Below are positions 13,278 through 59,309 of a stretch of 64,000 bases of DNA, one piece after another. Both the position numbers and the translations under genes were made by a program. The DNA is from Pseudomonadota bacterium. Its GTDB lineage: Bacteria > Desulfobacterota > Desulfobacteria > Desulfobacterales > RPRI01. Location of the stretch: positions 64,001 through 128,000 of the forward strand of contig JBDRRF010000051.1 of assembly GCA_043825875.1 (NCBI GenBank). The letters are read 5' to 3'. The notes beneath the pieces are model-generated. The model was not told where the DNA came from. It saw only the letters and a list, made by a program, of their open reading frames with translations, and searched no databases. Position 1 is the stretch's first letter, and the number at the start of each line of letters is the position of its first letter.

Positions 13278-13311
13278 TGTCATAAATCTATTCCGTTTGT
13301 TCGAAATGACA
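13278..13311. repeat. Internally deleted copy of the TGTCAT...GAAATGACA palindromic repeat
   Basis: Shares termini with 26111-26191 and 61376-61453. Confidence 0.55.
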
Positions 13312-13352
13312 AATACGTAACCAAATTTATGAAGCTATGTACTAAGGTGGTG

Positions 13353-18389: not shown

Positions 18390-18424
18390 ATAACAAGTTA
18401 TTGAACAGTTTCTGTTCAATTCCG
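18390..18424 (-). other. attI-like cassette-head motif, copy A
   Basis: 30/35 identical to 56608-56642; ends in minus-strand GTTAT 24 nt before a start codon. Confidence 0.55.
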
Positions 18425-45679: not shown

Positions 45680-47515
45680 ATGAATGACTACATTCAATAT
45701 TACGGCCTTTCAGAAAATCCGTTCGATATCTCGCCGGATTCAAAATTCTTCTTTCCTTCAGAAAGTCATAAGGAAGCTTTAGCCTCTTTGCTCTACGTAG
45801 TCAAGGAACGCAAAGGATTCATGCTGCTTATCGGCGAAGAAGGCTCTGGCAAAACCATTCTGGTAAACCACCTGATCAAGAGTTTGGATAATAATGAAAA
45901 TGTAGTCTATTTTTCGGATGGGAATCTTTCATACGAACAGATATTAAAGGAACTTCTGATCAAACTGAAGCTGTCACCTAAAAGAATCAATAAAGCTGCT
46001 ATGCTTTTTGAATTAAATGATTATTTAATACAAAATCTGGCTCTGGGGAAAAATCTGATTCTTATTATCGATGAAGCTCAAAACATTTCCGGGGATGTAT
46101 TGGAAGAACTGCGATTGACATCCAATCTGGAAACCAGCACATCAAAGCTTTTGCAAATAATTTTTGTGGGCAGGCCAAAACTCGAAGCCAAACTTAATAC
46201 CAGAGGCTTAAGGCAGCTAAAACAAAGGATCGGCACAATAGGTCGTATCACTCGTTTAAGCCCTGCGGAATCGATAGAATATATTAATCATCGATTACTG
46301 CATGCAGGATGTGATAGTACTGATATATTTTCATCAAAAGCACTTGCTTTAATTTGCAGGCATTCAGATGGCATCCCTATAAACATTAATCTTCTCTGCC
46401 ACAATGCCTTATTTAAAGGATTTGAATACTCAGAAAAACCAATCTTAGCTAAAACGATAAGAAAGATCCGCAATAAAGGCTATCTTTTAGAAGATAAACA
46501 AACAAAAGACGCTGTAACCGGGCATAAACAAAAACCCCGCTTCACATTCGCAAAACGGAAAGTATGGCTTAAAAGATCTCTTTATTTATGCCTTACTTTC
46601 GGATGCATAATGCTTGCAGTGTTGCTGGGTGAAAAACATCTGAATAACATCCCTGAAATCTCTAAATCATTAACTTATTTCAAACCAACCACTGTAAGTA
46701 AAAAAGTTCCCAAAAAAGTTAAAATAAAAGCCCCCGTTACAAAAAAAGTAATAACCGACGCTACAGTCATCGAGGAGGTTTTAGTACCTGAACCATTACC
46801 GGTTATACCTTTAATGGATAATCAGCCTGAACAAAATACTTCTGACACTTCTAATACTTCTGATACAGCTGACACTTCTGATATATCTGATACTTCTAAT
46901 ACTTCTGATACTTCTGATATTTCTGATATTTCTGATATTTCTGATATAGCTGACACTTCTAATACAGCTGATACAGCTGGCACTTCTGTTATTTCTGATA
47001 CAGCTGATACTTTTAATACAGCTGATACCGCTGATCTGAAAGATCCGCCCAGTGTACCGGAAACAAACGGGTTACGATATGAAAAAATTGTTACTATTAA
47101 TGAAGGAGATACTCTTTACCTCTTAATTCTAAACAATTATAATCTGGCAAACACAACACTGCTGGATATTATCATAGCATTCAACCCGGAAATCCCCAAT
47201 CCTGATCTGATTTTCTTAAATAGTAAAATTCGTATGCCGGAAATTACAGAATCAAATCTGATTGAAATATCATCTGATGGAAGCATCAATGCTCATCTTG
47301 GAACTTTTTCAACCCGCAAAAAAGCTGTAAATTACAAGAGTTTGATCAATATTACTGATAAGGAAATTGCAATTATACCCAAAACAGTACCACCCGACAA
47401 AACATGGTTCAGAGTTATTGCAGGGCCTTTTACTAATGAAGAAGATTGTTTGAAAATGCTTAAGGAATTAAGGCAAAAAGGGCTTCTGCCAGCTTTCGGA
47501 AAAATCTCAAATTGA
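45680..47515 (+). CDS. ExeA/GspA-like AAA ATPase with TM, low-complexity linker, LysM and SPOR domains
   Basis: YGLSENPF..PD, GEEGSGKT, IIDEAQ, GIPININLLC; EGDTL..NPEIPNPDLI; WFRVIAGPF. Confidence 0.88.
   Translation: MNDYIQYYGLSENPFDISPDSKFFFPSESHKEALASLLYVVKERKGFMLLIGEEGSGKTILVNHLIKSLDNNENVVYFSDGNLSYEQILKELLIKLKLSPKRINKAAMLFELNDYLIQNLALGKNLILIIDEAQNISGDVLEELRLTSNLETSTSKLLQIIFVGRPKLEAKLNTRGLRQLKQRIGTIGRITRLSPAESIEYINHRLLHAGCDSTDIFSSKALALICRHSDGIPININLLCHNALFKGFEYSEKPILAKTIRKIRNKGYLLEDKQTKDAVTGHKQKPRFTFAKRKVWLKRSLYLCLTFGCIMLAVLLGEKHLNNIPEISKSLTYFKPTTVSKKVPKKVKIKAPVTKKVITDATVIEEVLVPEPLPVIPLMDNQPEQNTSDTSNTSDTADTSDISDTSNTSDTSDISDISDISDIADTSNTADTAGTSVISDTADTFNTADTADLKDPPSVPETNGLRYEKIVTINEGDTLYLLILNNYNLANTTLLDIIIAFNPEIPNPDLIFLNSKIRMPEITESNLIEISSDGSINAHLGTFSTRKKAVNYKSLINITDKEIAIIPKTVPPDKTWFRVIAGPFTNEEDCLKMLKELRQKGLLPAFGKISN
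46838..47035 (+). repeat. Intragenic 9-bp tandem repeat (about 22 units; TSD/ISD/TAD tripeptides)
   Basis: ACTTCTGAT/ACAGCTGAT/ATTTCTGAT units. Confidence 0.9.
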
Positions 47516-47623: not shown

Positions 47624-47850
47624 TTAGCCAATTTTATTATACTTTGTCATCCGCCCATTTCTCACTGCTTCTATTTTTTTACTATCAACAAGTTGTTTTA
47701 AATCTCTGCTTTCTGTAACTGTCGATATTCCTTTATTTATCCTCATATATTCTTTTCTATCATTATAACTCCTTATGATTGTATCTATGAATGATAATCT
47801 GCAATTTCCACATTCATTGGCCCATTCCCGGTCCAAATGAAACAAATGCG
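47624..47850 (-). pseudogene. Chimeric remnant: higB 3' end/higA start joined to a Fic-type C-terminal HTH fragment
   Basis: 47761-47850 matches 51740-51829 with 5 mismatches in 90 nt; followed by RKEYMR..ISTVTESRDL..TKY. Confidence 0.65.
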
Positions 47851-47979: not shown

Positions 47980-50547
47980 ATGAAAAAAGCCCTTATTACC
48001 ATAGGAATCATTCTGGCTCTTATTCTCTGTGTCATTATTATTCTACCGTTTGTGATTGATATTAACTCTATTGTGGCAAAACAAATTCCAACCATCGAAA
48101 AACAGTTAAACCGGAAAGTTGTTATTGGTGATGTTAAATTAACGATACTTACCGGTTTGGGAGCAGAAATCAAAAATGTCAAAATCTCCAACAGCCCGGA
48201 TTTTAAGCAGCAAGACTTTGTCAGTATAGACAGTTTAAAAGCCACGGTACAAGTTCTGCCACTACTTAAAAAAAAGTTTCTGATTTCTTCCGTATCAATT
48301 AATACTCCTTCAATACTGATTGAAAGAGATGCAAAAGGCAGATTTAATTTTTCCGATATGATCCCAACGAAACCGCCTGAAAAAGCTCCTCCTGCAAAAC
48401 CGCAAAAAAAAGACGAAACAGAAAATCCGCTGGCGGCTCTTGAAAATATTTCCGTATCCAAAATTTCTATAACAGATGGAAATTTTAAATTTATTGACGC
48501 TTACAATACTAAAACTGCCAAAGAAATTGCTTTGGACAAATTCAATCTTACAATGAAAGCAGTTTCATTATCTGAAAAAATCAACATTGATTTTGAAACC
48601 GATGTTTATGCAAGTCCCAAGGCAGGACATGTTTTGCTTTCGGGTGATATTGGCCCCATCGGCCAAAAGCCGGTACCTGAAAATATTCCCGTTGATCTGA
48701 CTTTATCTGTTGATGATGTCAATCTACCCCATCTTATGCAATATATTAAAGGAATTAATATCAAATCCGGCGCTGTTGATGTCAAAATGGATTTAAAAGG
48801 ACGTTTGAGCGATAACCTTCAATGCCGCCTCGGCATTGACTGGGACAAGCTGGACTTAGTACTGGCAGACAACACCAAAGAAGAATCAGCTCCACAGCTC
48901 TTAATGGACGGCTCATGGAAAATCGAGGCCAATATTTTGTCAAAAAGCTTGGCTGAAGATTTAAGCTTTAAAACCGACATGGATGCAACAAAAGGAAAAA
49001 TTGCGTTTGGAAATCTGTTTACAAAGGATGCGGGTATACCCCTATCACTTAATATAAACGGTCTTTATAAAAAAGATATTCTAAAAGTTGATAATCTCGA
49101 ATTTATCTTAAATAAAATAGTACTGACCGGCTTAGCCGATATTTCCAATTTTGCCGATCCGTCTATTAATGGAACCTTAAAGATGGCCCCTGCCCCGCTG
49201 GATTCACTGGCTCCGATTCTGCCCTCATTAAAAGCTTATAAACTCGAAGGAGATCTGGCGCTTTCCGATGTCCGTTTCAAGGGAAAAATCAATAAGCTAA
49301 AAAATCTTACCGGTGTTGCCGCCAGTTTAACCCTTAAAAACGGGAGCGCTACATCCGCCGAACTCGGGAAAAAGATTGAAAGCATTCAGGTAGCTGTAAA
49401 TATAGCTGATAATGCCGTTAAGATACAAAATACATCGCTTCGTATCGGACCTTCTGATCTAAGCCTTAATGCAACCATACGAAACATTATGAAACCGGAC
49501 ATTACATTCAACCTTGCTTCTAATTATCTCGATATTGACACACTGATGCCCGCATCCGCGAAAGAAAAACAAAAAGCTATAAAAAAGGAACCTAAAGCAG
49601 GCGAATCAAAAGCGGCCGAATCAAAAACAAAAACATCCGAAAAGCAAAAAGCCCCGGATTTAAAAGCACAGGGGAAGATCTCTATTAAAAAATGCAAATA
49701 CAATAAATCGGATTTTGAAAATGTTTCAGCTGAAATTCAATATGAAAACGCGGTTGCCACATTAAAAAATATAAGTTTTGACAGCTTCGATGGTAACATA
49801 AAAGCAAATGCAAAAGTAAATCTTAGCGATATGCAATCTCCGAAATGGGATATGGATCTTGCTACAAAAAACATTAATGTGAATAAAGTCCTGAATCAAT
49901 TTACCAGTATACAAGATACACTTTTTGGAAACGTCAACAGCAACTTAAGCATTCAGGGGAAAGGATCGGACTGGAATATAATTTCAAAAAGTCTTGCAGG
50001 AAAAGGTTCTGCCGACATTACCAATGGGAAACTCGCCAATGTAAATATATTGGATGCCGTATCCGAAAGTCTTTTAAAATTTAAAGGATTAAACATGGTA
50101 GCGCAAGCCATCGCACCGGAAAAACAAAAAAGCTTAAACGAAACTGCATTTAAAGACCTTGCAGGAAAATTTAGTATCGAGGCAGGAAAAATCGCACTTG
50201 ATACCATGAAAATATCCGCAAAAGATTTTATACTATCCGGTAAAGGCGCCATTGGCCTTGATAAATCCCTTGATTTGAATACGGCAGTACTTCTTACCAA
50301 ATCCGCATCCGAGCGTTTCCAAAAAGACAAGACATTAAAATACCTTTTAAATAATGATCAGCAACTGGAAATTCCCTGCACCATCAAAGGTGATGTAACA
50401 TCTCCGCAAATCGCGGCAGACGGGAACAGCCTTAACCGCCTGCTTGGAAATGCCGCATCAAAGGTTGTGCAAGAACAGGTTCAAAAAAAGCTTGACGGGA
50501 AAGTGGGAAAAGAACTCGATAATGTTTTAAAAAATATATTCAAATGA
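47980..50547 (+). CDS. AsmA family protein
   Basis: N-terminal TM, LPLL, IERDAKGRFNFSD, C-terminal G.IGLD..IKG..TSP pattern. Confidence 0.88.
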   Translation: MKKALITIGIILALILCVIIILPFVIDINSIVAKQIPTIEKQLNRKVVIGDVKLTILTGLGAEIKNVKISNSPDFKQQDFVSIDSLKATVQVLPLLKKKFLISSVSINTPSILIERDAKGRFNFSDMIPTKPPEKAPPAKPQKKDETENPLAALENISVSKISITDGNFKFIDAYNTKTAKEIALDKFNLTMKAVSLSEKINIDFETDVYASPKAGHVLLSGDIGPIGQKPVPENIPVDLTLSVDDVNLPHLMQYIKGINIKSGAVDVKMDLKGRLSDNLQCRLGIDWDKLDLVLADNTKEESAPQLLMDGSWKIEANILSKSLAEDLSFKTDMDATKGKIAFGNLFTKDAGIPLSLNINGLYKKDILKVDNLEFILNKIVLTGLADISNFADPSINGTLKMAPAPLDSLAPILPSLKAYKLEGDLALSDVRFKGKINKLKNLTGVAASLTLKNGSATSAELGKKIESIQVAVNIADNAVKIQNTSLRIGPSDLSLNATIRNIMKPDITFNLASNYLDIDTLMPASAKEKQKAIKKEPKAGESKAAESKTKTSEKQKAPDLKAQGKISIKKCKYNKSDFENVSAEIQYENAVATLKNISFDSFDGNIKANAKVNLSDMQSPKWDMDLATKNINVNKVLNQFTSIQDTLFGNVNSNLSIQGKGSDWNIISKSLAGKGSADITNGKLANVNILDAVSESLLKFKGLNMVAQAIAPEKQKSLNETAFKDLAGKFSIEAGKIALDTMKISAKDFILSGKGAIGLDKSLDLNTAVLLTKSASERFQKDKTLKYLLNNDQQLEIPCTIKGDVTSPQIAADGNSLNRLLGNAASKVVQEQVQKKLDGKVGKELDNVLKNIFK

Positions 50548-50594
50548 TTTATGGAAATTTGCATTCTATAAATCACAAAAACCGATAGGAAATT

Positions 50595-50626
50595 AAAAGT
50601 CCCCGTTGCAAGCAACGGGGACTTTT
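50595..50626. terminator. Bidirectional intrinsic terminator
   Basis: AAAAGTCCCCGTTGC-AA-GCAACGGGGACTTTT between convergent genes. Confidence 0.85.
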
Positions 50627-50647
50627 ATATTAATCAGGCAAACCACT

Positions 50648-51181
50648 TTAATTAGCATTGATAGGCAATTTGTCGTGATCGACAAATATCAATTTACTAA
50701 TGTCAAACCCCGATGCAGCTGCTTTTTCTATGAGAGTATGTTTTATATCTTCTTTCATTATCGGGCTTCTTGCCAGAATCCATAAATAAGATTTGTCAGG
50801 GCCGCATACTAGTGAATATTGGTAATTCTCATGGTCAAGTCCAAAAACTATGTAAGAACCATAAAAGGGGCCAAAGAAAGAAACTTTCAGGTAACCCTGG
50901 CTAGATCCTTTTACAAAATAAGCCTTTCCTTCGGCTTCTTTCCATGAATCTTCTTTAGCAGAGTAACCGCGATTCAGCACTCTGATACCACCATCATCAC
51001 GCAAACTATAATCTGCTGTTACGTTGTTCAAACCTTTCTCAAACGAATGATCCAATCTCACAATTTCATACCACTTACCCAGATATTTCTCTATCCTGAA
51101 ATTATCAACGGGTTTTACATTTTCAGGTATTCCAACACACCCCATTAAAAATAAACAAAATACTATTGATAGTTTCTTCAT
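50648..51181 (-). CDS. blc: Bacterial lipocalin lipoprotein
   Basis: Lipobox LMGC, YLGKWYEI, LKVSFFGPF, YLWILAR. Confidence 0.93.
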   Translation of the reverse strand: MKKLSIVFCLFLMGCVGIPENVKPVDNFRIEKYLGKWYEIVRLDHSFEKGLNNVTADYSLRDDGGIRVLNRGYSAKEDSWKEAEGKAYFVKGSSQGYLKVSFFGPFYGSYIVFGLDHENYQYSLVCGPDKSYLWILARSPIMKEDIKHTLIEKAAASGFDISKLIFVDHDKLPINAN

Positions 51182-51191
51182 CTCTTTCCTT

Positions 51192-51350
51192 TTATATATT
51201 ACGTTCCGCATAAACGGATGGCAATGGAGCGCGTAATGCCTTGATTATGTATTGCTCAGTATGATTGCTTATTGGGAGAGTCGTGAAGGCAGCTATTGTA
51301 ACCCGGGTAATTGACTCAATGCCTGAAGTAGTTTCTTTTCTTATGAACAT
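51192..51350 (-). pseudogene. N-terminal remnant of a YhbS-like GNAT acetyltransferase, joined to a half attC
   Basis: Manual translation MFIRKETTSGIESITRVTIAAFTTLPISNHTEQYIIKALR; GGAG RBS; stops after 52 aa. Confidence 0.65.
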
Positions 51351-51394
51351 CTAAATCTCCGGTTTATTTTTACTTTGCTGTTCCTGCAAGCCGA

Positions 51395-51742
51395 TCAGGT
51401 AGCGCTATGCTGGGTGCTGGAATTATTCGTATCAAGATTGCCAAGGGGTAACGGCTTAATGTTATTCAGAGCATCTGACTCAGATTTCTTCGCGAAATAA
51501 AGATCCCATCTCAACTGAACATTCATCCAAAAGTCTGCCGACACTCCAAAAACCTTTGCCAGTCTTAATGCTGTACTAGGAGTGATTCCACGCCTCCCAT
51601 TTACTATTTCATTTATTCGTTGATAGGGAACATTTATGGCATTAGCTAAATCTCGCTGGGTTATGCCCATTGGCTTCAAAAACTCCTCCATCAGCATTTC
51701 CCCAGGATGGGTTGGTGTCCTATTTGTAGGTATCCGTATCAT
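51395..51742 (-). CDS. higA: HigA family antitoxin
   Basis: THPGEML.EEFL, RINEIVNGRRGIT..ALRL..FW.N.Q. Confidence 0.93.
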   Translation of the reverse strand: MIRIPTNRTPTHPGEMLMEEFLKPMGITQRDLANAINVPYQRINEIVNGRRGITPSTALRLAKVFGVSADFWMNVQLRWDLYFAKKSESDALNNIKPLPLGNLDTNNSSTQHSAT

Positions 51743-51763
51743 TATAACTCCTTATAATTGTAT

Positions 51764-52060
51764 CTATGAATGGTAATCTGCAATTTCCACATCCATTGGC
51801 CCATTCTCGGCCCAAATGAAACAAATGCGATATTGATCATTTATTCGGATACTGTATTGCCCCTTTCTGTCACCCGACAGCAACTCCAATCTATTTCCGG
51901 GCGGAATTCGCAATTCGTCAAGAGTCAAAACAGAATCCAGTCGATCAAGTTTTCTAAATACAACATTCCAAAGGCTTTGAGGACAAATTTTTCTAGCGGC
52001 TTTTGTCGACTGGCCGTTGAAAATTTCCTCTGTGGCTTTGTTTTTAAAGGATTGTATCCT
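51764..52060 (-). pseudogene. higB: HigB (RelE-like) toxin with start codon ATG>AGG
   Basis: Manual translation xIQSFKNKATEEIFNG...LRIPPGNRLE.L.GDRKGQYSIRINDQYRICF.W....DVEIADYHS; in-frame stop 7 codons upstream. Confidence 0.85.
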
Positions 52061-52068
52061 GAAAATAC

Positions 52069-52083
52069 GATAGCCCGGCTATC
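52069..52083. promoter_or_regulatory. Candidate HigA operator palindrome
   Basis: GATAGC-CCG-GCTATC just upstream of higB. Confidence 0.5.
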
Positions 52084-52206
52084 ATGCTATTTCAAGTTAA
52101 TTTTATTATCGTGGCAGCCCGAATGAAAAGATCTCATGTATAACGTAGCAGAGACGAGAAAACAAAAAAATCAGTCGGAGCGTAACGACCGGTTGGGGAG
52201 GGTATT

Positions 52207-52265
52207 GGGATCAAACCTTGAATAGTTATTTTAGATATTTAATCACTATTCAACGGTTTGATCCC
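52207..52265. repeat. Inverted repeat inside an attC-like site (52138-52333)
   Basis: GGGATCAAACC-TTGAATAGT ... ACTATTCAA-CGGTTTGATCCC. Confidence 0.75.
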
Positions 52266-52344
52266 TTTCGTTTCCATTCGTTTACCCGCAAGCCGGGAGC
52301 GATGCGAGCAAGGTGTCTATACACTTGATAGACCTCTATTCTGT

Positions 52345-52705
52345 CTATTCCACAAGCTCAAATTCATAGTATTTTGAAAATCTAATCAATAATCGATTCG
52401 GATCGGCTGATAATTGGCCAAGATCCTTTCCTGTTAAATTGGAATGATCAAAAATGTCCACACTTCCTTTTAATTCACTACTGCATCCGCTTATAGCAAT
52501 TAATTTACCGAGTTTTTGATGTGCTCCCTGAGCTATAATTTTGGCTTTTTGTAGTGCTTTTTCGAAGGCTTCAGTTGAAAGTTTTTCAAGGTGAATATCC
52601 GAATTTTTCAGGCCAAAGAATATTGCACTGGTGCTTGAGTCATAATCAAAGGAAAACCTCACCGGAACCCTTTGTTTCCATGTGTAGCATCATTATATTT
52701 TTCAT
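52345..52705 (-). pseudogene. Truncated or frameshifted gene, possibly SIMPL-like C-terminus
   Basis: A..KA..KA..IA....KLGKL pattern; no in-frame start with an RBS. Confidence 0.4.
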
Positions 52706-52730
52706 AATTACATTAAGTTTTTTTAGCATG

Positions 52731-53282
52731 CTACCAGTTTTTAAGGTATGCTATTATCATATCTTTTTCTTCCTGTTCATCAAGCCATTGTTTGAATTCA
52801 TCAGCTTTTCCAAAAATTTCTTCGCCAATTCTTTTTTGAATGACCTGTTTTAGCGCCTCCTGGTTTTCTTCTTCTCTTATGTTTTTCTGCCAGCTACGTG
52901 TGAATATTTTGTTTATTTCATCATGCAGATTTTTCGATTTCAGTATTTTCCATTCGTTGTTGTCCAGCCAGAAACCGTTACAGCTTCCACAAAAGTCAAG
53001 TTTGAATGGGATTCCATGGCCCACTTTGTATTTGCTCATTATTCTTCCGCATTCAGGGCAGAGTTTTGCTTTCAGAATATCATCCGATCTCAACGTTATA
53101 TCGTACTCATCTTTTTCCTCGATTATTTCACCTTTGACTTCAAGCCATTCATGATAATCTCTTGAGCATATCCAATGCCCGCCACAATCATCGCAATAAT
53201 AGCCGATAAGTTTTTCCTCAAGTCTTTCCGTTTTCAACAGTACTTTCTTCTTTACGTCACATATCGGACACGACATTTTCAT
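52731..53282 (-). CDS. zf-TFIIB-like zinc ribbon protein
   Basis: CPIC, CDDCGGHW, CPEC, CGSCNGFWLD; AGGAG RBS. Confidence 0.85.
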   Translation of the reverse strand: MKMSCPICDVKKKVLLKTERLEEKLIGYYCDDCGGHWICSRDYHEWLEVKGEIIEEKDEYDITLRSDDILKAKLCPECGRIMSKYKVGHGIPFKLDFCGSCNGFWLDNNEWKILKSKNLHDEINKIFTRSWQKNIREEENQEALKQVIQKRIGEEIFGKADEFKQWLDEQEEKDMIIAYLKNW

Positions 53283-53416
53283 TTTAGTTACTCCTTGCTA
53301 AGTTTTTTCAAAGTTGATTAAAAACACATCTATCAAATCAGAACATAAAGGTAAGAAGGGGCGGTTTAAAACCCGAAAAGCTGAATATTTAATGCAGCTT
53401 GCAAAAGTAATAGAGG

Positions 53417-54070
53417 TCAGTCACCGCAGTTAATAAGCTCCCTGCTCAAACTTTTGTTTAAGAACTTATTTGTTTTTTCGAAGAAATCAGAGCACTCTCC
53501 TGGATGGGTTATTGCTAAAAGATGGCCTGCATCCTTTATCACTTCGCAATCACTTTTCGGACACGTAATTATGTGATCCTTTTTCCCATGAAGGCGGAAA
53601 ACATTATCTGCTGCCCCTCGATACCCAGGCCATGAGGAAACATATCTGCTCATAGAACGAATAAAGTCCGGGTCTGACTCCGAAAACATTTGGCTTACGA
53701 CATCATCAATTCTTCCAGACAGTGTCTGAATAAATGAAAGTGGTGTAATCGATGCTAACGGCGACAATAGGGATATCAGTCTTTTTATTTCTTTTTTGTG
53801 CAAAGCACTTCCCATTAACACCACTGCCTTCGCATTCAATATCATTGCGATTTCAAGGGCAATCATCCCGCCAAGAGACGAACCGCCAATAATATCATTC
53901 GAACTAATTTGATTTTCTGAGATTAATCGTTCTGCAACCTCTTTATAGGTGACTTCTTTCTGGTACTTCGGCCAGTTCAAGAAATTAACCTCGAAACTGA
54001 GATTTCTTCTCAGGGAATCGTACATCTCAGAAGATGCTCCCATCCCTGGCAATATATACCATTTAGTCAT
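53417..54070 (-). CDS. Alpha/beta hydrolase
   Basis: PGMG, GSSLGG, HGKKD, AGH. Confidence 0.88.
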   Translation of the reverse strand: MTKWYILPGMGASSEMYDSLRRNLSFEVNFLNWPKYQKEVTYKEVAERLISENQISSNDIIGGSSLGGMIALEIAMILNAKAVVLMGSALHKKEIKRLISLLSPLASITPLSFIQTLSGRIDDVVSQMFSESDPDFIRSMSRYVSSWPGYRGAADNVFRLHGKKDHIITCPKSDCEVIKDAGHLLAITHPGECSDFFEKTNKFLNKSLSRELINCGD

Positions 54071-54082
54071 GGTCCGTCCGAC

Positions 54083-54144
54083 TCTTAACCGCTGCTCAGT
54101 GGTGGCGCGGTTTTTGCTTTAACCCTTGCAGTAGAAGGTTATAA
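54083..54144 (-). other. attC-like site
   Basis: R'' TTATAAC contains the upstream stop codon; R' GTTAAGA; CTGC/GCAG inner stem. Confidence 0.72.
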
Positions 54145-54543
54145 AGGTTTTATTACAATTTTACTTCTGATAGTATAATTAAATTGTTTTTCAAGATCAG
54201 ACCAATCCGATGGTTCACCATCAGATTGAATTGTTTCATAAGCTTTGAGCATGTATGTTTTGCTTTTATCAATTTTCAAATTTTCAAATACTGGTTCTAC
54301 AACAAGTGGTTCTTGAAGTATTTTACTGTTTATTTCGAAAATTTTTAAATAATAATCAGAGTGGGAAACGTTTTGTGCATAATATGAATTTGGCTTATCA
54401 ATAAATACGGCTTTTATTGTACAGATCTGACCGAACGGAATTCCGAGAATGCTTTTAATTGAGTCTTCAGCCAAACACATTTGGGATATCGATAAAATCA
54501 GAATGAATGGTATAAGTATTTTATTCATTTTATATTTCACCAA
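54139..54543 (-). CDS. Hypothetical exported protein (gene cassette)
   Basis: Signal peptide; exactly bounded by two attC-like sites. Confidence 0.75.
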   Translation of the reverse strand: MVKYKMNKILIPFILILSISQMCLAEDSIKSILGIPFGQICTIKAVFIDKPNSYYAQNVSHSDYYLKIFEINSKILQEPLVVEPVFENLKIDKSKTYMLKAYETIQSDGEPSDWSDLEKQFNYTIRSKIVIKPL

Positions 54544-54551
54544 TTATTAAT

Positions 54552-54613
54552 TTATAACATGGTGTGCCAGGGGCGGTATGCCCCTCGCCGTCCCCTTGAC
54601 ACACTCGTTATGT
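54552..54613 (-). other. attC site (best preserved, 62 bp)
   Basis: R'' ACATAAC, stem GTGTGTCAAGGGGACGG / CCGCCCCTGGCACAC with unpaired bases, R' GTTATAA. Confidence 0.82.
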
Positions 54614-54619
54614 GAAGAT

Positions 54620-54953
54620 TTATTTCATTAGGTCGTTAATTATATTTCCGATTGATAATAGAATGATTACCCCGAAAAATATAACTAAAATAATCTTAAG
54701 GCTCTTAGCACCTAAAAAACCGAAAAATTTATACTCAGCAAATGGGAATTCATTGCTACAATCCGGGCATATAGTTAACACTGCTTCCGATATCTCGTCT
54801 AAACCATTTCTTTTTTTAAAAATAGGCTCCGAGCTTTTCTTGTCCAAAATATGGAAAAAGGAAGATGGACCATCAATTTTATATTTAAATTTTTTTCAGC
54901 ATTAAATTGAAAAAGGCATTTATGGCATTTTATATACGACATTGATATTCCAT
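54620..54953 (-). pseudogene. Frameshifted zinc-ribbon membrane protein
   Basis: CHKC and CPDC lie in different frames across A-runs; C-terminal TM. Confidence 0.5.
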
Positions 54954-55439
54954 CTTATTAGTTGTCACATAACAAGTTATTGTACTGACCAGTATATCAT
55001 GCAAAATTGGATAATAAACTGCTAACAATATAATTCCGGATATTAAGAATATCGGAATACTTAATTTCAAACTTTAACAAATATCTTTCTGAGGAAGATA
55101 TTACTTTAGCCTCTCATAGTTTCTGCGAAAATAAAAAAACAAAAGCCCCGTGCTTCAATTGTCTGAAGATCGGGGCTTGATTGTATCCGGTCACATTAAA
55201 TCCTTTAGAGCGTGTAAAATAATTATATCAGATTATTAATTCCAGAAAATGCTAAAATAATACTATTTGTATAATGAGCAATAATGCATGAGTTTTGTTA
55301 ACACTTTGCATCAATTAATTCAATAAAAAAAGAGAAAGAAGAACACTGTATGGTTTATAGATTGATTTGAGCCAGTAATCTTCTCCCCTATCAGCAAGTA
55401 ATTTATCTTGTTTGCTTGATGCAGAAAATAACTGTGAGG

Positions 55440-55664
55440 TCAGGATTGTTCATCATCAGTAATATACTCCCACATTTTATTTTGATGTAACCAAATTGGA
55501 TCAGCATTCCTGCGGATGAATTCGTCTACATCCATACCATCTGTGGTTATCGGGCGCTTGACCTGCTTCTGCTTTCCATTTATGAATATGGTCATGTACT
55601 CTTTCCGATGGTGCTTTTTTTCAGTCTTTTCAGCAGCAGAGAGTTTTCGTTTTAGCTTTGCCAT
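55440..55664 (-). CDS. Small hypothetical protein
   Basis: 74 aa; FINGKQK..DEFIRRNADPIWLHQN. Confidence 0.7.
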   Translation of the reverse strand: MAKLKRKLSAAEKTEKKHHRKEYMTIFINGKQKQVKRPITTDGMDVDEFIRRNADPIWLHQNKMWEYITDDEQS

Positions 55665-55712
55665 GGTAGGAACCGCTTTATCTATCTTTCTATGCCAATT
55701 TGCGAGATGAGT

Positions 55713-55976
55713 TTACTTCTCAATAATCTTCCAGTACCTTATTCCTGGCTCTCCATTTTGACACTCAGGACACTTTCTCTCGTGCATGTCTGACCCGTTT
55801 GTTCCATAAACATTGCCGCAGTAAGTACATTCAGTCTTGTATGCATATTGCCCATGATCGGTTCCAGGAATTCCGCAATGGCCGCAACATTGCTGGCCAT
55901 TAGGATTGAGATAGCCAATTTCGACACTCTCGCCACTACCTTCCTGCCATTCAATATGAATATCGGTTTCGTTCAT
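55713..55976 (-). CDS. Small Cys-rich (zinc-ribbon) hypothetical protein
   Basis: CTYCG, CPEC; GGAGG RBS. Confidence 0.75.
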   Translation of the reverse strand: MNETDIHIEWQEGSGESVEIGYLNPNGQQCCGHCGIPGTDHGQYAYKTECTYCGNVYGTNGSDMHERKCPECQNGEPGIRYWKIIEK

Positions 55977-55995
55977 ACTTATTTATCCTCCCAAA

Positions 55996-56103
55996 GAGAC
56001 TATTGAAAAAGTCCCAAAACGGTTAATTCAGTTATTTTGTATTTTATAATATCAGACAATTAGAAATGTCAAAATCCAGATTTCAGACTTTTCCGACAGG
56101 CTC
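55996..56103. mobile_element. 108-bp MITE-like element inserted at an attC core site
   Basis: Imperfect TIRs GAGACTATTGAAAAAGTC / GACTTTTCCGACAGGCTC; abuts the GTT of the attC at 56104-56157. Confidence 0.7.
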
Positions 56104-56157
56104 AACATGAAGTTCACCGGGGGGTGATAGCGAAACTACGCAACGAATTTGTTATGT
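56104..56157 (-). other. attC-like site
   Basis: R'' ACATAAC overlaps the toxin stop codon; GTT core at 56106-56104. Confidence 0.72.
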
Positions 56158-56403
56158 TTTTTTATAGCTACCTTTACGATGCAGAACTCGACCAATTTCA
56201 ATCATATCTTTACCAACATCAAATAAAATTCTATAATCCCCAACTCTTGCTCTATAGGCAGGTTCAAAATTTGTTAATCTTTTCAGATTGCTGACATTAG
56301 GAAAGTTTTCCAGTTCCAGAATCTTATCGTGAATACGCTTCTTATCAGTTTCACCAATCTTTTTTAAATCTTTTATAGCGCTTTGTCTGATATTAATCTT
56401 CAT
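56152..56403 (-). CDS. RelE/ParE family toxin
   Basis: SAIKDLKKI, YRARVGDYRILF, RVLHRK. Confidence 0.9.
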   Translation of the reverse strand: MKINIRQSAIKDLKKIGETDKKRIHDKILELENFPNVSNLKRLTNFEPAYRARVGDYRILFDVGKDMIEIGRVLHRKGSYKKT

Positions 56404-56587
56404 TTTTTAAATACTCAGAAAACAGGATACTATCTTCCCCTCTTGTTACTGCTAAAAGTTTTAAATCTTCAATATCTTCCTGTGACACTATCTCAACACC
56501 TTCACTTTCTAAGTGTTTCAAGAACCATATTATCTTATCCCTTATCTCTTTATTCTTTATTGATATAGTAACTGTTTGCATTTTCAT
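56393..56587 (-). CDS. Putative antitoxin
   Basis: Small acidic ORF overlapping the toxin start; GGAG RBS. Confidence 0.75.
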   Translation of the reverse strand: MKMQTVTISIKNKEIRDKIIWFLKHLESEGVEIVSQEDIEDLKLLAVTRGEDSILFSEYLKNED

Positions 56588-56607
56588 TCTCCAAGTATTT
56601 TTAAAAC

Positions 56608-56761
56608 ATAACAATATATTGAACAGTTTCCATTCAATACCGTGAAATTCCAAAAGTGTCGATATCAAAATTTAGTTATAATGATAAATATACTTGATAT
56701 AATTATATTATCAAACTTGCTCAATATTCAATTTGCGTTCTTAGGAGGAAACTGTTCAATA
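56608..56761 (-). other. attI-like cassette-head motif, copy B, with a 15-bp inverted partner
   Basis: TATTGAACAGTTTCC (56617-56631) / GGAAACTGTTCAATA (56747-56761); sits at the 5' head of the array. Confidence 0.55.
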
Positions 56762-57224
56762 CCGATATTTTCTTTTTTTGATTAGATTTGGTAATTTATT
56801 AACATGGTTTGCGTTTAAAATCTATTATTTTTATAGACATGTTCGATATGTCTATTAGGTGAAGCCCCCTGTTCGTCATTCCGATGAAGGATAGAAACCA
56901 GTAATTTCATTTGGTTCTGGATGCCGGAAGTTTTTGTCACTAAGTATTTCCCTAAATACACTTTCGTAAGGCCTCACAATTTTAACGAGGTTTTAGTTGA
57001 TATTCGCTGAGCAGGAAAACCAGCAATAATTGAAGTCAGATAGTAGAAAAACTTGCTTACACTAAAAATAATTGTATAATTATTATATTGCTAAGTGCCC
57101 GTCATGCACCTGATATAGAGAAGATTGTTCATGTGGCTAACAAAAGAGAGCCGGAACTGATATTATTGATGATTTTCATCGGCTTTCTGATAGACTGATA
57201 ATAAAGCAAAATGGGTGTTTCAAT

Positions 57225-59309
57225 ATGTACACATCGTTCTATAATCTATCTGCAAAGCCTTTTCAAATCAACACAGATCCCAGATTTCTTTGGCTTGGGG
57301 AAAAACACAAAGAAGCTTTGGCGGTCTTAAGGATTGGTTTAATAAACCAAAATGGTTTTCTGTTGCTAACAGGAGATGTTGGTACAGGCAAAACCACATT
57401 GGTCAATGCCTTATTAAAAAGTCTTGATAATAATGTTTTGGTTGCGAGTATCACCGACCCAAACCTCGACTTGATGGGCTTTCTCAATCATATCGCACGG
57501 TCTTTTAAAATCCCACAACGATTTGACAGAAAAGAAGACTTTCTCATTGATTTTAAAAATTTTTTAGAAAATACCTGCTTGAATAATGCTAAGCAGGTTT
57601 TACTAATCATTGATGAAGCTCATAAGTTATCAAAAGAGCTTTTAGAACAGGTTCGATTATTGTCGAACATTGAGATGCCGGAAAGAAAGCTTATCAACAT
57701 ATTTCTTGTTGGTCAAAATGAACTAAATCAAACGTTGATATCCAACAATTGTCGCGCCCTCCTGCAGCGAATCACCCAGAATTACAACATCAAGCCGTTA
57801 TCGGAGAATGAAACGCGGGAATACATCAAATACCGTTTAAAAGTAGCTGGAACGGAGTCGCACCTTTTCAGCTTAAAAGCCATCAATGAGATATACCGTT
57901 TTTCCGGCGGTTGTCCGCGTCTAATCAACACAATTTGTGATCGCGCTCTTTTAACAGGGTATGTGATGGGCCAAAAAATGATTACGCCAAACATCATTCT
58001 GGAATGCTCCAAGGAAGTCCTTCTACCTGGCGAAACGAAAATGCGTTCATTTTCCGATCTTTCGCAACCGTTAAGCCCAGAGAACCTGTCCTCATCCGTC
58101 GAGGAAGTCCTATTAACTGATGAAGCGGAATTAAGTCCATTTTCTGATCTTCCGCAACCATTAAGCCCAGAGAACCTGCCCTCATCCGTCGAGGAAGTCC
58201 AACTAACTGATGAAGCGGAATTGGGTTCATTTTCCGATCTTCCGCAACCATTAAGCCCAGAGAACCCGCCCTCACCTGTTGATGAAGTACTTCTACCTGA
58301 CGAAACGGAATATGGAAATATCGGCACTGTTTTTCAGCAAAACGGAAATATGGACCTTCCCTTAAAAGAGCCTGCAACTGTCTGTGAAGGCTTGAACACC
58401 GTAGGAAAAATTGAAGCTGAAGGCAGGTGGAACTCTGCTTTGAGACCTAAGATAAAGGAACTTATAAAAGGGGGTTTGACGGCGATTAACTTTTATGAAC
58501 CCAATAGAAGACGTTTGATATACGGGGTCATGGCTACCTCCTTAATCGTGCTTGCCACAGTCTTTTATTCACTTTTGTTTTCAGGATCAGACCATCAGGC
58601 GCCTATGCCACGCGAGCTTAACGATAGGGCACTGACTAAGGCCCTTCCTTCTGTTGCATCCGTCGGCAAACAGATGGTTGTCACCTCTCCCGAAAAGGAC
58701 ATTACGGCCAAGACCAATGGTGGAGCGAACCCTGGCAAACGATCTTCATTGGATCAGGCAAAGGTGGCGATAAAAGAAAATAAATTCAGTCGCGCAGGGG
58801 AACTTTTGGAAGAGGTCATGGCCCACCAAGAGGGCAATCAGCCAGAAATAAAAGCGCTGTATGTACAAGCATTAATAGGACAGGCGAGACTTCTGCCTGC
58901 CAAAGATACCGACCAAATTGAGAAACTACTTCGTAAAGCCGTTAAAAAAGATCCTCAAAATGCAATAGCATACTATGACCTTGGGAAGCTTTATGCTAAG
59001 AAGAAAGATTACCTCAAGGCCATCGAGGTTTACTCAAAGGCCGCTGAGCTAAATCCCGACTCGGCCAACACTTTATTTAATCTTGGCTTTAGCTATGCTG
59101 CTATCAAAAATTATGTGAATGCCGAAAAAATGTTTCTGCGTGTTAGTGAACTGAAACCCACCTATCTTGACAAAGCGATCTTTAATTTGGCTTTGGTCCA
59201 GTACAAGCAGGGTAAAAAGGAACAATGCCTTAAGAATCTTAAAAAGGCACTAGAAGTGAATCCTGCTAATCAAAGAGCGCGCAAATATTTGGAGCGGTTT
59301 TTAGCTTAA
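57225..59309 (+). CDS. ExeA/GspA-like AAA ATPase with 30-aa repeats, TM and C-terminal TPRs
   Basis: YNLSAKPF..DP, GDVGTGKTT, IIDEAH, GCPRLINTICD; TPR motifs. Confidence 0.9.
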   Translation: MYTSFYNLSAKPFQINTDPRFLWLGEKHKEALAVLRIGLINQNGFLLLTGDVGTGKTTLVNALLKSLDNNVLVASITDPNLDLMGFLNHIARSFKIPQRFDRKEDFLIDFKNFLENTCLNNAKQVLLIIDEAHKLSKELLEQVRLLSNIEMPERKLINIFLVGQNELNQTLISNNCRALLQRITQNYNIKPLSENETREYIKYRLKVAGTESHLFSLKAINEIYRFSGGCPRLINTICDRALLTGYVMGQKMITPNIILECSKEVLLPGETKMRSFSDLSQPLSPENLSSSVEEVLLTDEAELSPFSDLPQPLSPENLPSSVEEVQLTDEAELGSFSDLPQPLSPENPPSPVDEVLLPDETEYGNIGTVFQQNGNMDLPLKEPATVCEGLNTVGKIEAEGRWNSALRPKIKELIKGGLTAINFYEPNRRRLIYGVMATSLIVLATVFYSLLFSGSDHQAPMPRELNDRALTKALPSVASVGKQMVVTSPEKDITAKTNGGANPGKRSSLDQAKVAIKENKFSRAGELLEEVMAHQEGNQPEIKALYVQALIGQARLLPAKDTDQIEKLLRKAVKKDPQNAIAYYDLGKLYAKKKDYLKAIEVYSKAAELNPDSANTLFNLGFSYAAIKNYVNAEKMFLRVSELKPTYLDKAIFNLALVQYKQGKKEQCLKNLKKALEVNPANQRARKYLERFLA
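58011..58310 (+). repeat. Intragenic 90-bp tandem repeat (3 full units plus a partial)
   Basis: EEVLLTDEAELSPFSDLPQPLSPENLPSSV units at 90-nt spacing. Confidence 0.92.

Follow-up and report, generated by a model that had tools for sequence, protein, structure and literature searches.

How does a block of gene cassettes come to stand in a chromosome with no integrase gene beside it? The question is raised by array 2, a run of 12–14 short unrelated genes and gene remnants, all on the minus strand (50648 to 56581), within a 64,000-nt stretch of a Desulfobacterales genome (the window; G000:C51:64001–128000). It lies between asmA (47980–50547, plus strand) and a gene for an ExeA-like AAA-TPR protein (57225–59309, plus strand). 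An earlier note, made from the letters alone, had counted about 13 such minus-strand genes or remnants and had read them as a CALIN, a group of clustered attC sites with no integron integrase (IntI). The gene count stood, as did the reading of a decaying cassette array without a neighbouring intI; the picture of one anonymous cluster did not. Array 2 consists of two tandem arrays, each beginning at its own attI-type head (type A, 56606–56768; type B, 54967–55117), and we consider it likely to be the largely frozen relic of two tandem integrons whose long-form intI genes have been deleted. Below, G000 denotes the window's own genome (a draft of 4.77 Mb in 118 contigs, 99.8% complete), G008 its closest relative, C-numbers the contigs of G000 and L-numbers retrieved loci; 16 genomes of the genus were compared.

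The relic reading is carried by the heads: elsewhere, the DNA in front of long-form intI genes shows homology to each of them. The earlier reading did not include the two heads, the intI 5′ stub at head B or a miniature inverted-repeat transposable element (MITE) on an attC GTT, and the span then given ended at 56761, inside head A. In 24 aligned copies of head A, conservation ends right after the GTT and unrelated genes follow; the crossover falls between G56612 and T56611, with the first-cassette 7-mer at 56612–56606. At locus L108, the gene for an intact 451-aa long-form IntI starts divergently at the far edge of the head, and head A of the window is 72.8% identical to this attI region. Pieces of intI 5′ ends, 34–78 codons long, occupy the same edge at five further loci (L097, L095, L105, L098 and L100), and the window copy retains the ribosome-binding-site region. 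Head A is a dispersed element: one model gave 13 matches in G000, 14 in G008 and matches in 10 of the 16 genus relatives, and the motif also occurs in records from Desulfobacterales, Desulfatiglandaceae and related deltaproteobacteria, so that a sulfate-reducing host within the Desulfobacterota is likely. It was found beside none of 26 intI loci in the genus, several of them truncated at a contig end. Two 10/12 sigma-70 matches lie within head A, while promoter-like matches across the region occur at chance level; position alone would place a cassette promoter (Pc) at the heads.

Two other identities were considered for this element and rejected: a dif-like site, as nothing is conserved after the GTT, and a MITE bounded by terminal inverted repeats, with the attI-like hairpin as its end, as the same element is found at the start of an intact intI. 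The conserved ‘left motif’ beside head A lies 13–23 nt from the head in many copies from several genomes, and elsewhere 133–137 nt away or alone. That it represents the 3′ flank of intI was not supported, the intI 3′ flanks of L108 and C79 being without it, and a tree of the heads did not resolve monophyly of those that carry the motif.

Homology among the copies of head B likewise stops after the GTT. This head precedes an IntI N-terminus at L175 and L176, the one at L175 being itself broken, and the attI-type site itself (54967–54998) has 28-mer copies on C79 and C64. Comparison with full-length copies showed the deletion in the window copy (∼58 bp). The stub beside it scored 13.3 bits against a profile of 11 IntI N-termini from which the window was excluded, a score reached by none of 3000 random windows, and it is identical to L175 at 9 of 26 positions. 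By their position beside divergent intI genes in homologs and by the end of homology at G/TT, heads A and B both qualify as predicted attI sites. The dispersed 200-bp repeat that abuts the stub has 12 copies in the genome, six of which precede an attI-like site within about 280 nt (in the window, on C64, C109 and C97, and twice on C91). It often occupies the point at which intI was truncated and is possibly a small RNA or a mobile end; in four copies it is interrupted by about 100–175 bp of inserted sequence.

These heads bear directly on the idea that there was never an integron here and that the cassettes landed successively at non-classical genomic (attG) sites. Such insertion is a demonstrated process from which small CALINs have been proposed to arise (10.1101/2022.09.11.507474), and the tail of array 2 (lipocalin, higBA) has no head of its own. 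Both arrays, however, begin at 160–200-bp heads homologous to intI-linked DNA, one of them with an intI stub, which largely refutes the attG explanation; we regard it as very unlikely.

A cassette that was once circular opens with a 7-mer complementary to its own R″ box. Agreement between the opening 7-mer and the reverse complement of the closing R″ was 7/7 for the relBE cassette, B1 and B2, and 6/7 for B3; three of the four cassettes tested in array 2 are thus exact. The three R″ words concerned have background frequencies of 4/40, 4/40 and 1/40. When array 2 was pooled with 11 first cassettes of other genomes, 12 of 14 closures were perfect, compared to 2.2 by permutation (0 of 20000). The 11 are those with an assignable first attC among 37 distinct copies of head A, and one of them (L108) has an intact intI. 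No matching R″ was seen for the Zn-ribbon, higBA, 87-aa and 74-aa units. At least three boundaries in array 2 are, by their closures, truly attC-derived. The hairpins bounded by AAC and GTT in the earlier note accordingly proved to be cassette boundaries, although only one of its four (54552–54613) folds end to end, and the two stop codons that it had placed inside R″ were found in relE (ACATAAC, 56157–56151) and in the 129-aa gene (TTATAAC, 54144–54138).

The closures also decide against the view that there are no cassettes at all, only chance AAC and GTT words in an AT-rich junk island. A first heuristic attC scan recovered none of the window's sites; a scan for AAC, L-box and GTT gave four matches against 1.5 ± 1.0 in 60 shuffles (maximum four), no better than shuffled sequence and not discriminating; and the E-values of covariance-model matches over the window are not significant. 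This view is contradicted by the three 7/7 closures, by attC-flanked orthologs and by heads ending at GTT, and we give it practically no weight.

The attC sites of array 2 are mostly decayed. Our first covariance model, built from 22 distinct attC sites that all lie outside the window, placed 54552–54613 at 16.8/14.1 bits (E 0.15/0.7) and found no second site in array 2; this is the best match of the window and the only array site with E<1 over it. The first model (R2; 23 rows, one duplicate) and a second one (R3; 40 rows, some duplicates) are short-site models that may under-score long attC sites. R3 adds 56100–56157 at 11.6 bits (E 0.3 in a 6.5-kb search), the ortholog of 56104–56157 being in its training set. 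Genome-wide, R3 found 39 attC sites at 22–48 bits, none of them in array 2, where scores reach at most 17 bits. On folding of the bottom strands, 54552–54613 held up; 54083–54144 and 56104–56157 adopt other structures (z about −1.5), 53337–53463 also fell short, and the two halves of 52138–52333 gave z +0.2 and −0.7. The palindrome between these halves (z −8.5) is present once in the genome and its flanks are not structured. The sites had been called divergent in the earlier note, a term that does not suit sequences scored at 17 bits or less by the same models that give 22–48 bits elsewhere in the genome. Decay fits better, because the relBE attC folds at L038 and not in the window, and because the lipocalin attC is reduced; an attC-shaped hairpin ending in GTT, as read by eye, follows the lipocalin gene in all four homologs retrieved from the genus.

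No tyrosine recombinase gene lies in the window, as had been noted: none of the genome's nine PF00589 matches falls there, and tblastn with its four IntI proteins found no remnant in the window at E≤1. These four, all above the TIGR02249 cut-off and all encoded by intact genes, comprise two short IntI (327 aa; on C51, 47 kb away, and on C68) and two long-form IntI with an N-terminal extension (on C79 and C107). None of the genes adjoins array 2, where the pairing of an intact intI with an adjacent attI is absent, and the nearest is 47,181 bp from head A. A cognate integrase for heads A and B was not found in the 118-contig draft, neither type adjoining any of the four intI genes. Long-form IntI (450–506 aa) with an extra N-terminal SAM-like domain are encoded at L019:1179–2696 (minus strand), L108:2719–4071 (plus strand) and G000:C107:289–1647, the L108 protein having two Phage_int_SAM_4 stretches; a search of the literature by title and abstract gave no description of this form.

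Could array 2 have split off by rearrangement from the integron 47 kb away? The two share a contig, and rearrangement is named as a source of CALINs by Cury et al. (PMC4889954). However, the C51 integron has a short IntI, an attI of a different family (type S) and an array pointing away, the heads of array 2 are of types A and B, and none of the 16 genus genomes showed array-2 cassettes inside a C51-type integron. This origin is hardly credible.

Comparison of cassette order with relatives, which the earlier note had proposed, showed that whole units are gained and lost between genomes. The relBE cassette lies in L038 behind another head and with another neighbour, and the lipocalin cassette occurs in other arrays. 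In G008, the array-2 site retains just the terminator, the extreme end of the lipocalin cassette and a remnant of 170 bp that starts at an intact GTT. At array 1 of the window, G000 and G008 (96% identical in asmA DNA) share the flanks and an intI-less head and differ in their cassettes, which hold one 327-aa ORF in the former and ORFs of 230, 130 and 171 aa in the latter. Three helicase-adjacent heads with the same left junction (L038, L040 and L042) are followed by three different opening cassettes. Between the window and L038, the relBE cassette is 95.8% identical (third positions 130/142) and the head 80.0% (184/230; Fisher p 0.003); the L038 head groups with those of L040/L042 (98/94) and not with the window head. 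Different cassettes at orthologous integrase-less heads suggest exchange in trans. The description of array 2 as intI-less and decaying is thus supported, since its cassettes close, the content of relatives differs and the nearest intI is 47 kb away; of the earlier alternatives ‘mobilised in trans or now decaying’, decay holds and trans mobilisation is supported indirectly, for the past. The type-A heads of L038, L040 and L042 lie inside defence-like islands (SNF2 helicase, N6-methylase, toxin–antitoxin genes), and the ORFs behind them are TIR-, KAP-NTPase- and DUF262-like by eye.

How widespread such heads are is shown by five attI-family profiles, which gave 46 head matches in the genome, some partial or weak: 16 of type A, six of type B, 11 of C79-type, eight of short-IntI type and five of C107-type. 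Three of the profiles were seeded from intI-linked copies only, and the type-A seeds include copies from this genome. Only four of the 46 matches stand beside an intact intI; the other 42 do not. The 39 good attC sites comprise eight behind intI-linked heads, nine behind three orphan C79-type heads, 14 in arrays with the head beyond the contig end and six unassigned, with at most two behind heads of type A and none behind type B. The decay of attC is worst where the cognate integrase was not found, which is a trend and not a test.

This census bears on whether the integrase-less heads are maintained and receive cassettes in trans to this day; the most plausible enzyme would be the 506-aa IntI on C79 (I79). 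IntI is described as strictly specific for its own attI (PMC2095811). The attI of the C79 enzyme shares a 7-bp core (TAACTTG) with head B, and of the four integrases it most resembles the head-A enzyme (63% to the L108 IntI over the catalytic part, compared to 44–47% for the others). The crossover sites of both heads are intact, first cassettes differ at orthologous integrase-less heads, and the good attC sites behind orphan C79-type heads point the same way. In contrast, the array-2 attC sites are decayed, the 22 matches of types A and B have next to no good attC sites behind them, head B has suffered an internal deletion and cassette B1 is frameshifted. Continued loading in trans is on balance unlikely for array 2.

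Array 1 of the window is a stack of three integrase-less heads (about 20417, 18392–18424 and 13199), two of type A and one of C107-type. One of the type-A heads has collapsed between two repeats and has an 18-codon intI stub at 18.4 bits. Large, well-preserved cassette arrays without adjacent intI also occur elsewhere in G000 (C109:57900–67300, C25, C102 and C75); that on C109, which starts at an orphan C79-type attI, is the strongest candidate for being active in trans.

The attC of the relBE cassette has also received a mobile element. The MITE sits exactly on the GTT of attC 56104–56157, and its first four bases (GAGC) complete an R′ 7-mer. There are further 108-bp copies on C24 and C68, and a 1843-bp insertion sequence (IS) on C68, which encodes a DUF772 + DDE_Tnp_1_6 protein, shares the ends and sits at an attC GTT. 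We take this domain pair to mark the IS1182 family. The left junction could be seen in seven elements (window, C24, C68 MITE, C68 IS, L169, L170 and L171), and in five the GTT of the attC right arm directly precedes the left end; the exceptions are L170, with ATT after an attC-shaped hairpin, and the C68 MITE, where GT/T is split by a group II intron. The right flank is GTT in five of seven and TTT or ATT in two, giving left/right pairs of GTT/GTT at C24, the C68 IS and L171, and GTT/TTT in the window. Non-coding, with shared terminal repeats and a target duplication, the element is an IS1182-derived MITE. Transposases at 52–53% identity (L165–L167) have other flanks and no attC. The GAGC of the MITE would rebuild a GTTRRRY core, and the element would then travel with the downstream cassette. 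The group II intron (RVT_1 + GIIM; L018:8700–10470, G000:C68:64700–66470) at GT/T of an attC R′ is oriented as the cassettes, with the MITE nested directly behind it. Introns of the IIC-attC group normally lie opposite to cassette orientation. Same-orientation exceptions are mentioned in PMC7923331.

Several results weigh against a relic of two integrons. A coding stub at head A is undetectable, with a profile score of −0.5 bits that 1367 of 3000 random windows equal and a DNA match as good in 140 of 2000 shuffles, and pairwise BLASTP of the head-B stub against L175 gave no alignment. The closure test covered 11 of the 37 distinct head-A copies, those with an assignable first attC, and the others, among them the remaining ones of this genome, did not enter it. 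The relBE attC is only 40/54 (74%) identical to its ortholog, and decay of non-coding DNA could by itself account for the 80% identity of the head with L038. The head tree leaves 16 of its 26 branches open, the region contains 26 promoter-like matches against 23.8 ± 5.1 by chance, and, with a draft of 118 contigs, a cognate intI could be unassembled.

In the history that we favour, IntI would have inserted circular cassettes at each attI by attC × attI recombination, and intI would later have been lost from its 3′ side, so that the attI remained with the promoter region and a 5′ stub. Cassettes would likely still have come and gone for a while, with the integrase provided in trans. Without a cognate integrase for types A and B, the attC hairpins would have decayed, while two toxin–antitoxin pairs probably keep the block from deletion. 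An IS1182-type MITE would then have inserted on an attC GTT, duplicating it and restoring the core, and would ride with the next cassette. By this history, array 2 is a CALIN of the integrase-loss kind. A CALIN is recognized by at least two clustered attC sites on one strand; here, one candidate site has E 0.15–0.7 over the window and a second E 0.3 with a model partly trained on its ortholog, and nearby, intI is represented only by the 26-codon 5′ stub. A broader picture, which we hold tentatively and at less than even confidence, is a distributed integron network in which attI/Pc heads have multiplied and scattered, a few integrases serve them in trans and arrays freeze when the cognate enzyme is lost; array 2 would then be two frozen heads parasitised by an attC-homing IS1182 MITE.

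The features of the region are collected in the following table.

Features of array 2 and its borders, in the direction of the cassettes (window positions)
Feature	Position	Strand	Remarks
Conserved ‘left motif’ abutting head A in place of intI	56784–56840	−	Recurrent beside heads in several genomes
Head A: attI-type docking site, upstream promoter region, repeats	56606–56768	−	Extends to old intI ribosome-binding site/start
Antitoxin-like gene (62 aa) opening cassette A1	56393–56581	−	Overlaps relE; ortholog in L038 92% identical
RelE/ParE-family toxin, stop codon in R″	56152–56403	−	PF05016 E 9e-12; closure 7/7
attC of A1, hairpin damaged	56104–56157	−	L038 ortholog folds end to end, window copy does not; 40/54 identical
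108-bp MITE with terminal inverted repeats of IS1182-type element, at attC GTT	55996–56103	−	Shared ends with C68 IS
87-aa Cys-rich ORF, decayed cassette behind MITE	55713–55976	−	No family match; no attC found behind
74-aa ORF without attC, candidate cassette	55440–55664	−	L030 homolog likewise without attC behind
Dispersed 200-bp repeat, terminator-like hairpin, abuts intI stub	55132–55331	−	Hairpin z −3.7
26-codon 5′ stub of long-form intI, start codon lost, divergent from cassettes	55040–55117	+	N-terminus profile
Head B: second attI-type site	54967–55039	−	Crossover G54973/T54972; two direct repeats with about 58 bp lost between them
Cassette B1, small Zn-ribbon/membrane gene, frameshifted and in two pieces	54620–54942	−	ORFs 54799–54942, 54620–54847; closure 7/7
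attC of B1, sole array site still folding end to end	54552–54613	−	z −2.4 bottom strand, −3.2 top
Cassette B2, 129-aa protein that looks secreted, stop codon within R″	54139–54528	−	No family match; closure 7/7
attC of B2, degenerate	54083–54144	−	No end-to-end fold; 6.5 bits
Cassette B3, alpha/beta hydrolase reading into own attC	53417–54070	−	PF12697; closure 6/7
Long degenerate attC of B3, not in earlier note	53337–53463	−	R″-like and GTT cores visible; folding z −1.2
183-aa double Zn-ribbon protein, own attC lost	52731–53282	−	PF13453
SIMPL-domain gene remnant	52345–52662	−	PF04402 partial, below cut-off
Mosaic of attC remnants split by near-perfect 59-bp palindrome	52138–52342	−	Palindrome 52207–52265
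higB-higA toxin–antitoxin module, closing attC lost	51395–52054	−	PF05015, TIGR02607
Old ORF-less remnant	51229–51400	−	93.5% identical in G008, where its start has intact GTT
Blc-like lipocalin cassette, attC reduced to left arm (50648–50666)	50648–51211	−	PF08212
Bidirectional terminator-like hairpin, asmA/array gap	50594–50627	.	15-bp stem

The cargo looks ordinary and the array mostly dead. The two toxin–antitoxin modules recognized earlier are borne out as HigB with HigA, and RelE/ParE with the 62-aa protein, which matched no Pfam or NCBIfam family and would be its antitoxin. PADLOC gave no defence match other than a weak helix–turn–helix match on HigA, and an Rfam search (gathering and E-value modes) found nothing relevant in the window. 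Homologs of higA have attC-like flanks in L151 and lack them in three other relatives. A 93-bp fragment (47758–47850) on the other side of asmA is 95% identical to the higB/higA junction (51737–51829), and other array fragments lie upstream of asmA in G008. The exeA-TPR region was present in one of five relatives tested, on a contig with only 450 bp upstream. Tandem peptide repeats occur within the two ExeA-like AAA proteins that flank the region (57994–58320 and 46800–46990), and there are two multi-copy short repeats resembling repetitive extragenic palindromes (13296–13349 and 56872–56928). A DNA sequencing run, possibly of the source, gave a single unchanged contig across 50859–58175 and two joints, both explained by paralogous repeats; assembled contigs drop rare variants, which makes joints or their absence uninformative on array activity.

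Array 2 adds an anatomy of two heads in tandem, a second head family with its stub, a census of five attI families and an association of decay with absence of the cognate integrase. In Cury et al. 2016 (PMC4889954), intI pseudogenes lay near only 15 of 279 CALINs, which fed the idea of attG insertion. The pseudogene search described there used intI_Cterm and PF00589 at >50% coverage, and unknown attI were not searchable; heads and N-terminal stubs would therefore go unseen. A search for lineage-specific attI heads and N-terminal intI stubs brings the integrase-loss route into view, and it offers a cheap general test, in which attI profiles trained clade by clade on intI-linked copies are run over the heads of CALINs. 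Dozens of integrase-less docking sites in one genome would account for the origin of many orphan cassette arrays. Should integrases reach orphan heads in trans, a single bacterium could operate many separate gene-capture sites with few enzymes, and integron content would be undercounted. A search of titles and abstracts, with subscription papers and supplements outside it, found neither multi-copy orphan attI heads nor an attC-homing IS1182 element.

Known elements that target attC include the IS1111-attC elements, and IS1272 presumably belongs to the IS1182 family. Our MITE and IS share homing to attC or hairpins with group IIC-attC introns (PMC7923331). IS1272 targets inverted repeats and is reported to leave no duplication (PMC5678879), whereas the element here has a 3-bp duplication. 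It is an IS1182-type DDE element that inserts at the R′ GTT in cassette orientation, which sets it apart from the known attC-targeting parasites. With CALINs (PMC4889954), array 2 shares co-oriented cassettes, attC-derived boundaries, no intI nearby and an IntI elsewhere in the genome; the difference is that two attI heads persist here, beside one of which lies a 5′ stub of intI. Clusters derived from attG (single attC sites lacking an integrase, or SALINs, and CALINs; Loot et al., 10.1101/2022.09.11.507474) also hold cassettes away from any integrase gene. Their landing sites are generic chromosomal ones, whereas the heads here are descendants of intI-linked attI regions. The sedentary chromosomal integrons of Xanthomonas with inactivated or lost intI (10.1101/2025.06.18.660453) share integrase loss, frozen arrays, CALINs at conserved loci and a proposed mobilisation in trans. 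There, essentially a single locus (ilvD) holds intI; in this genome, the 46 matches, 42 of them with no adjacent integrase, fall into five attI families, and heads stand in tandem.

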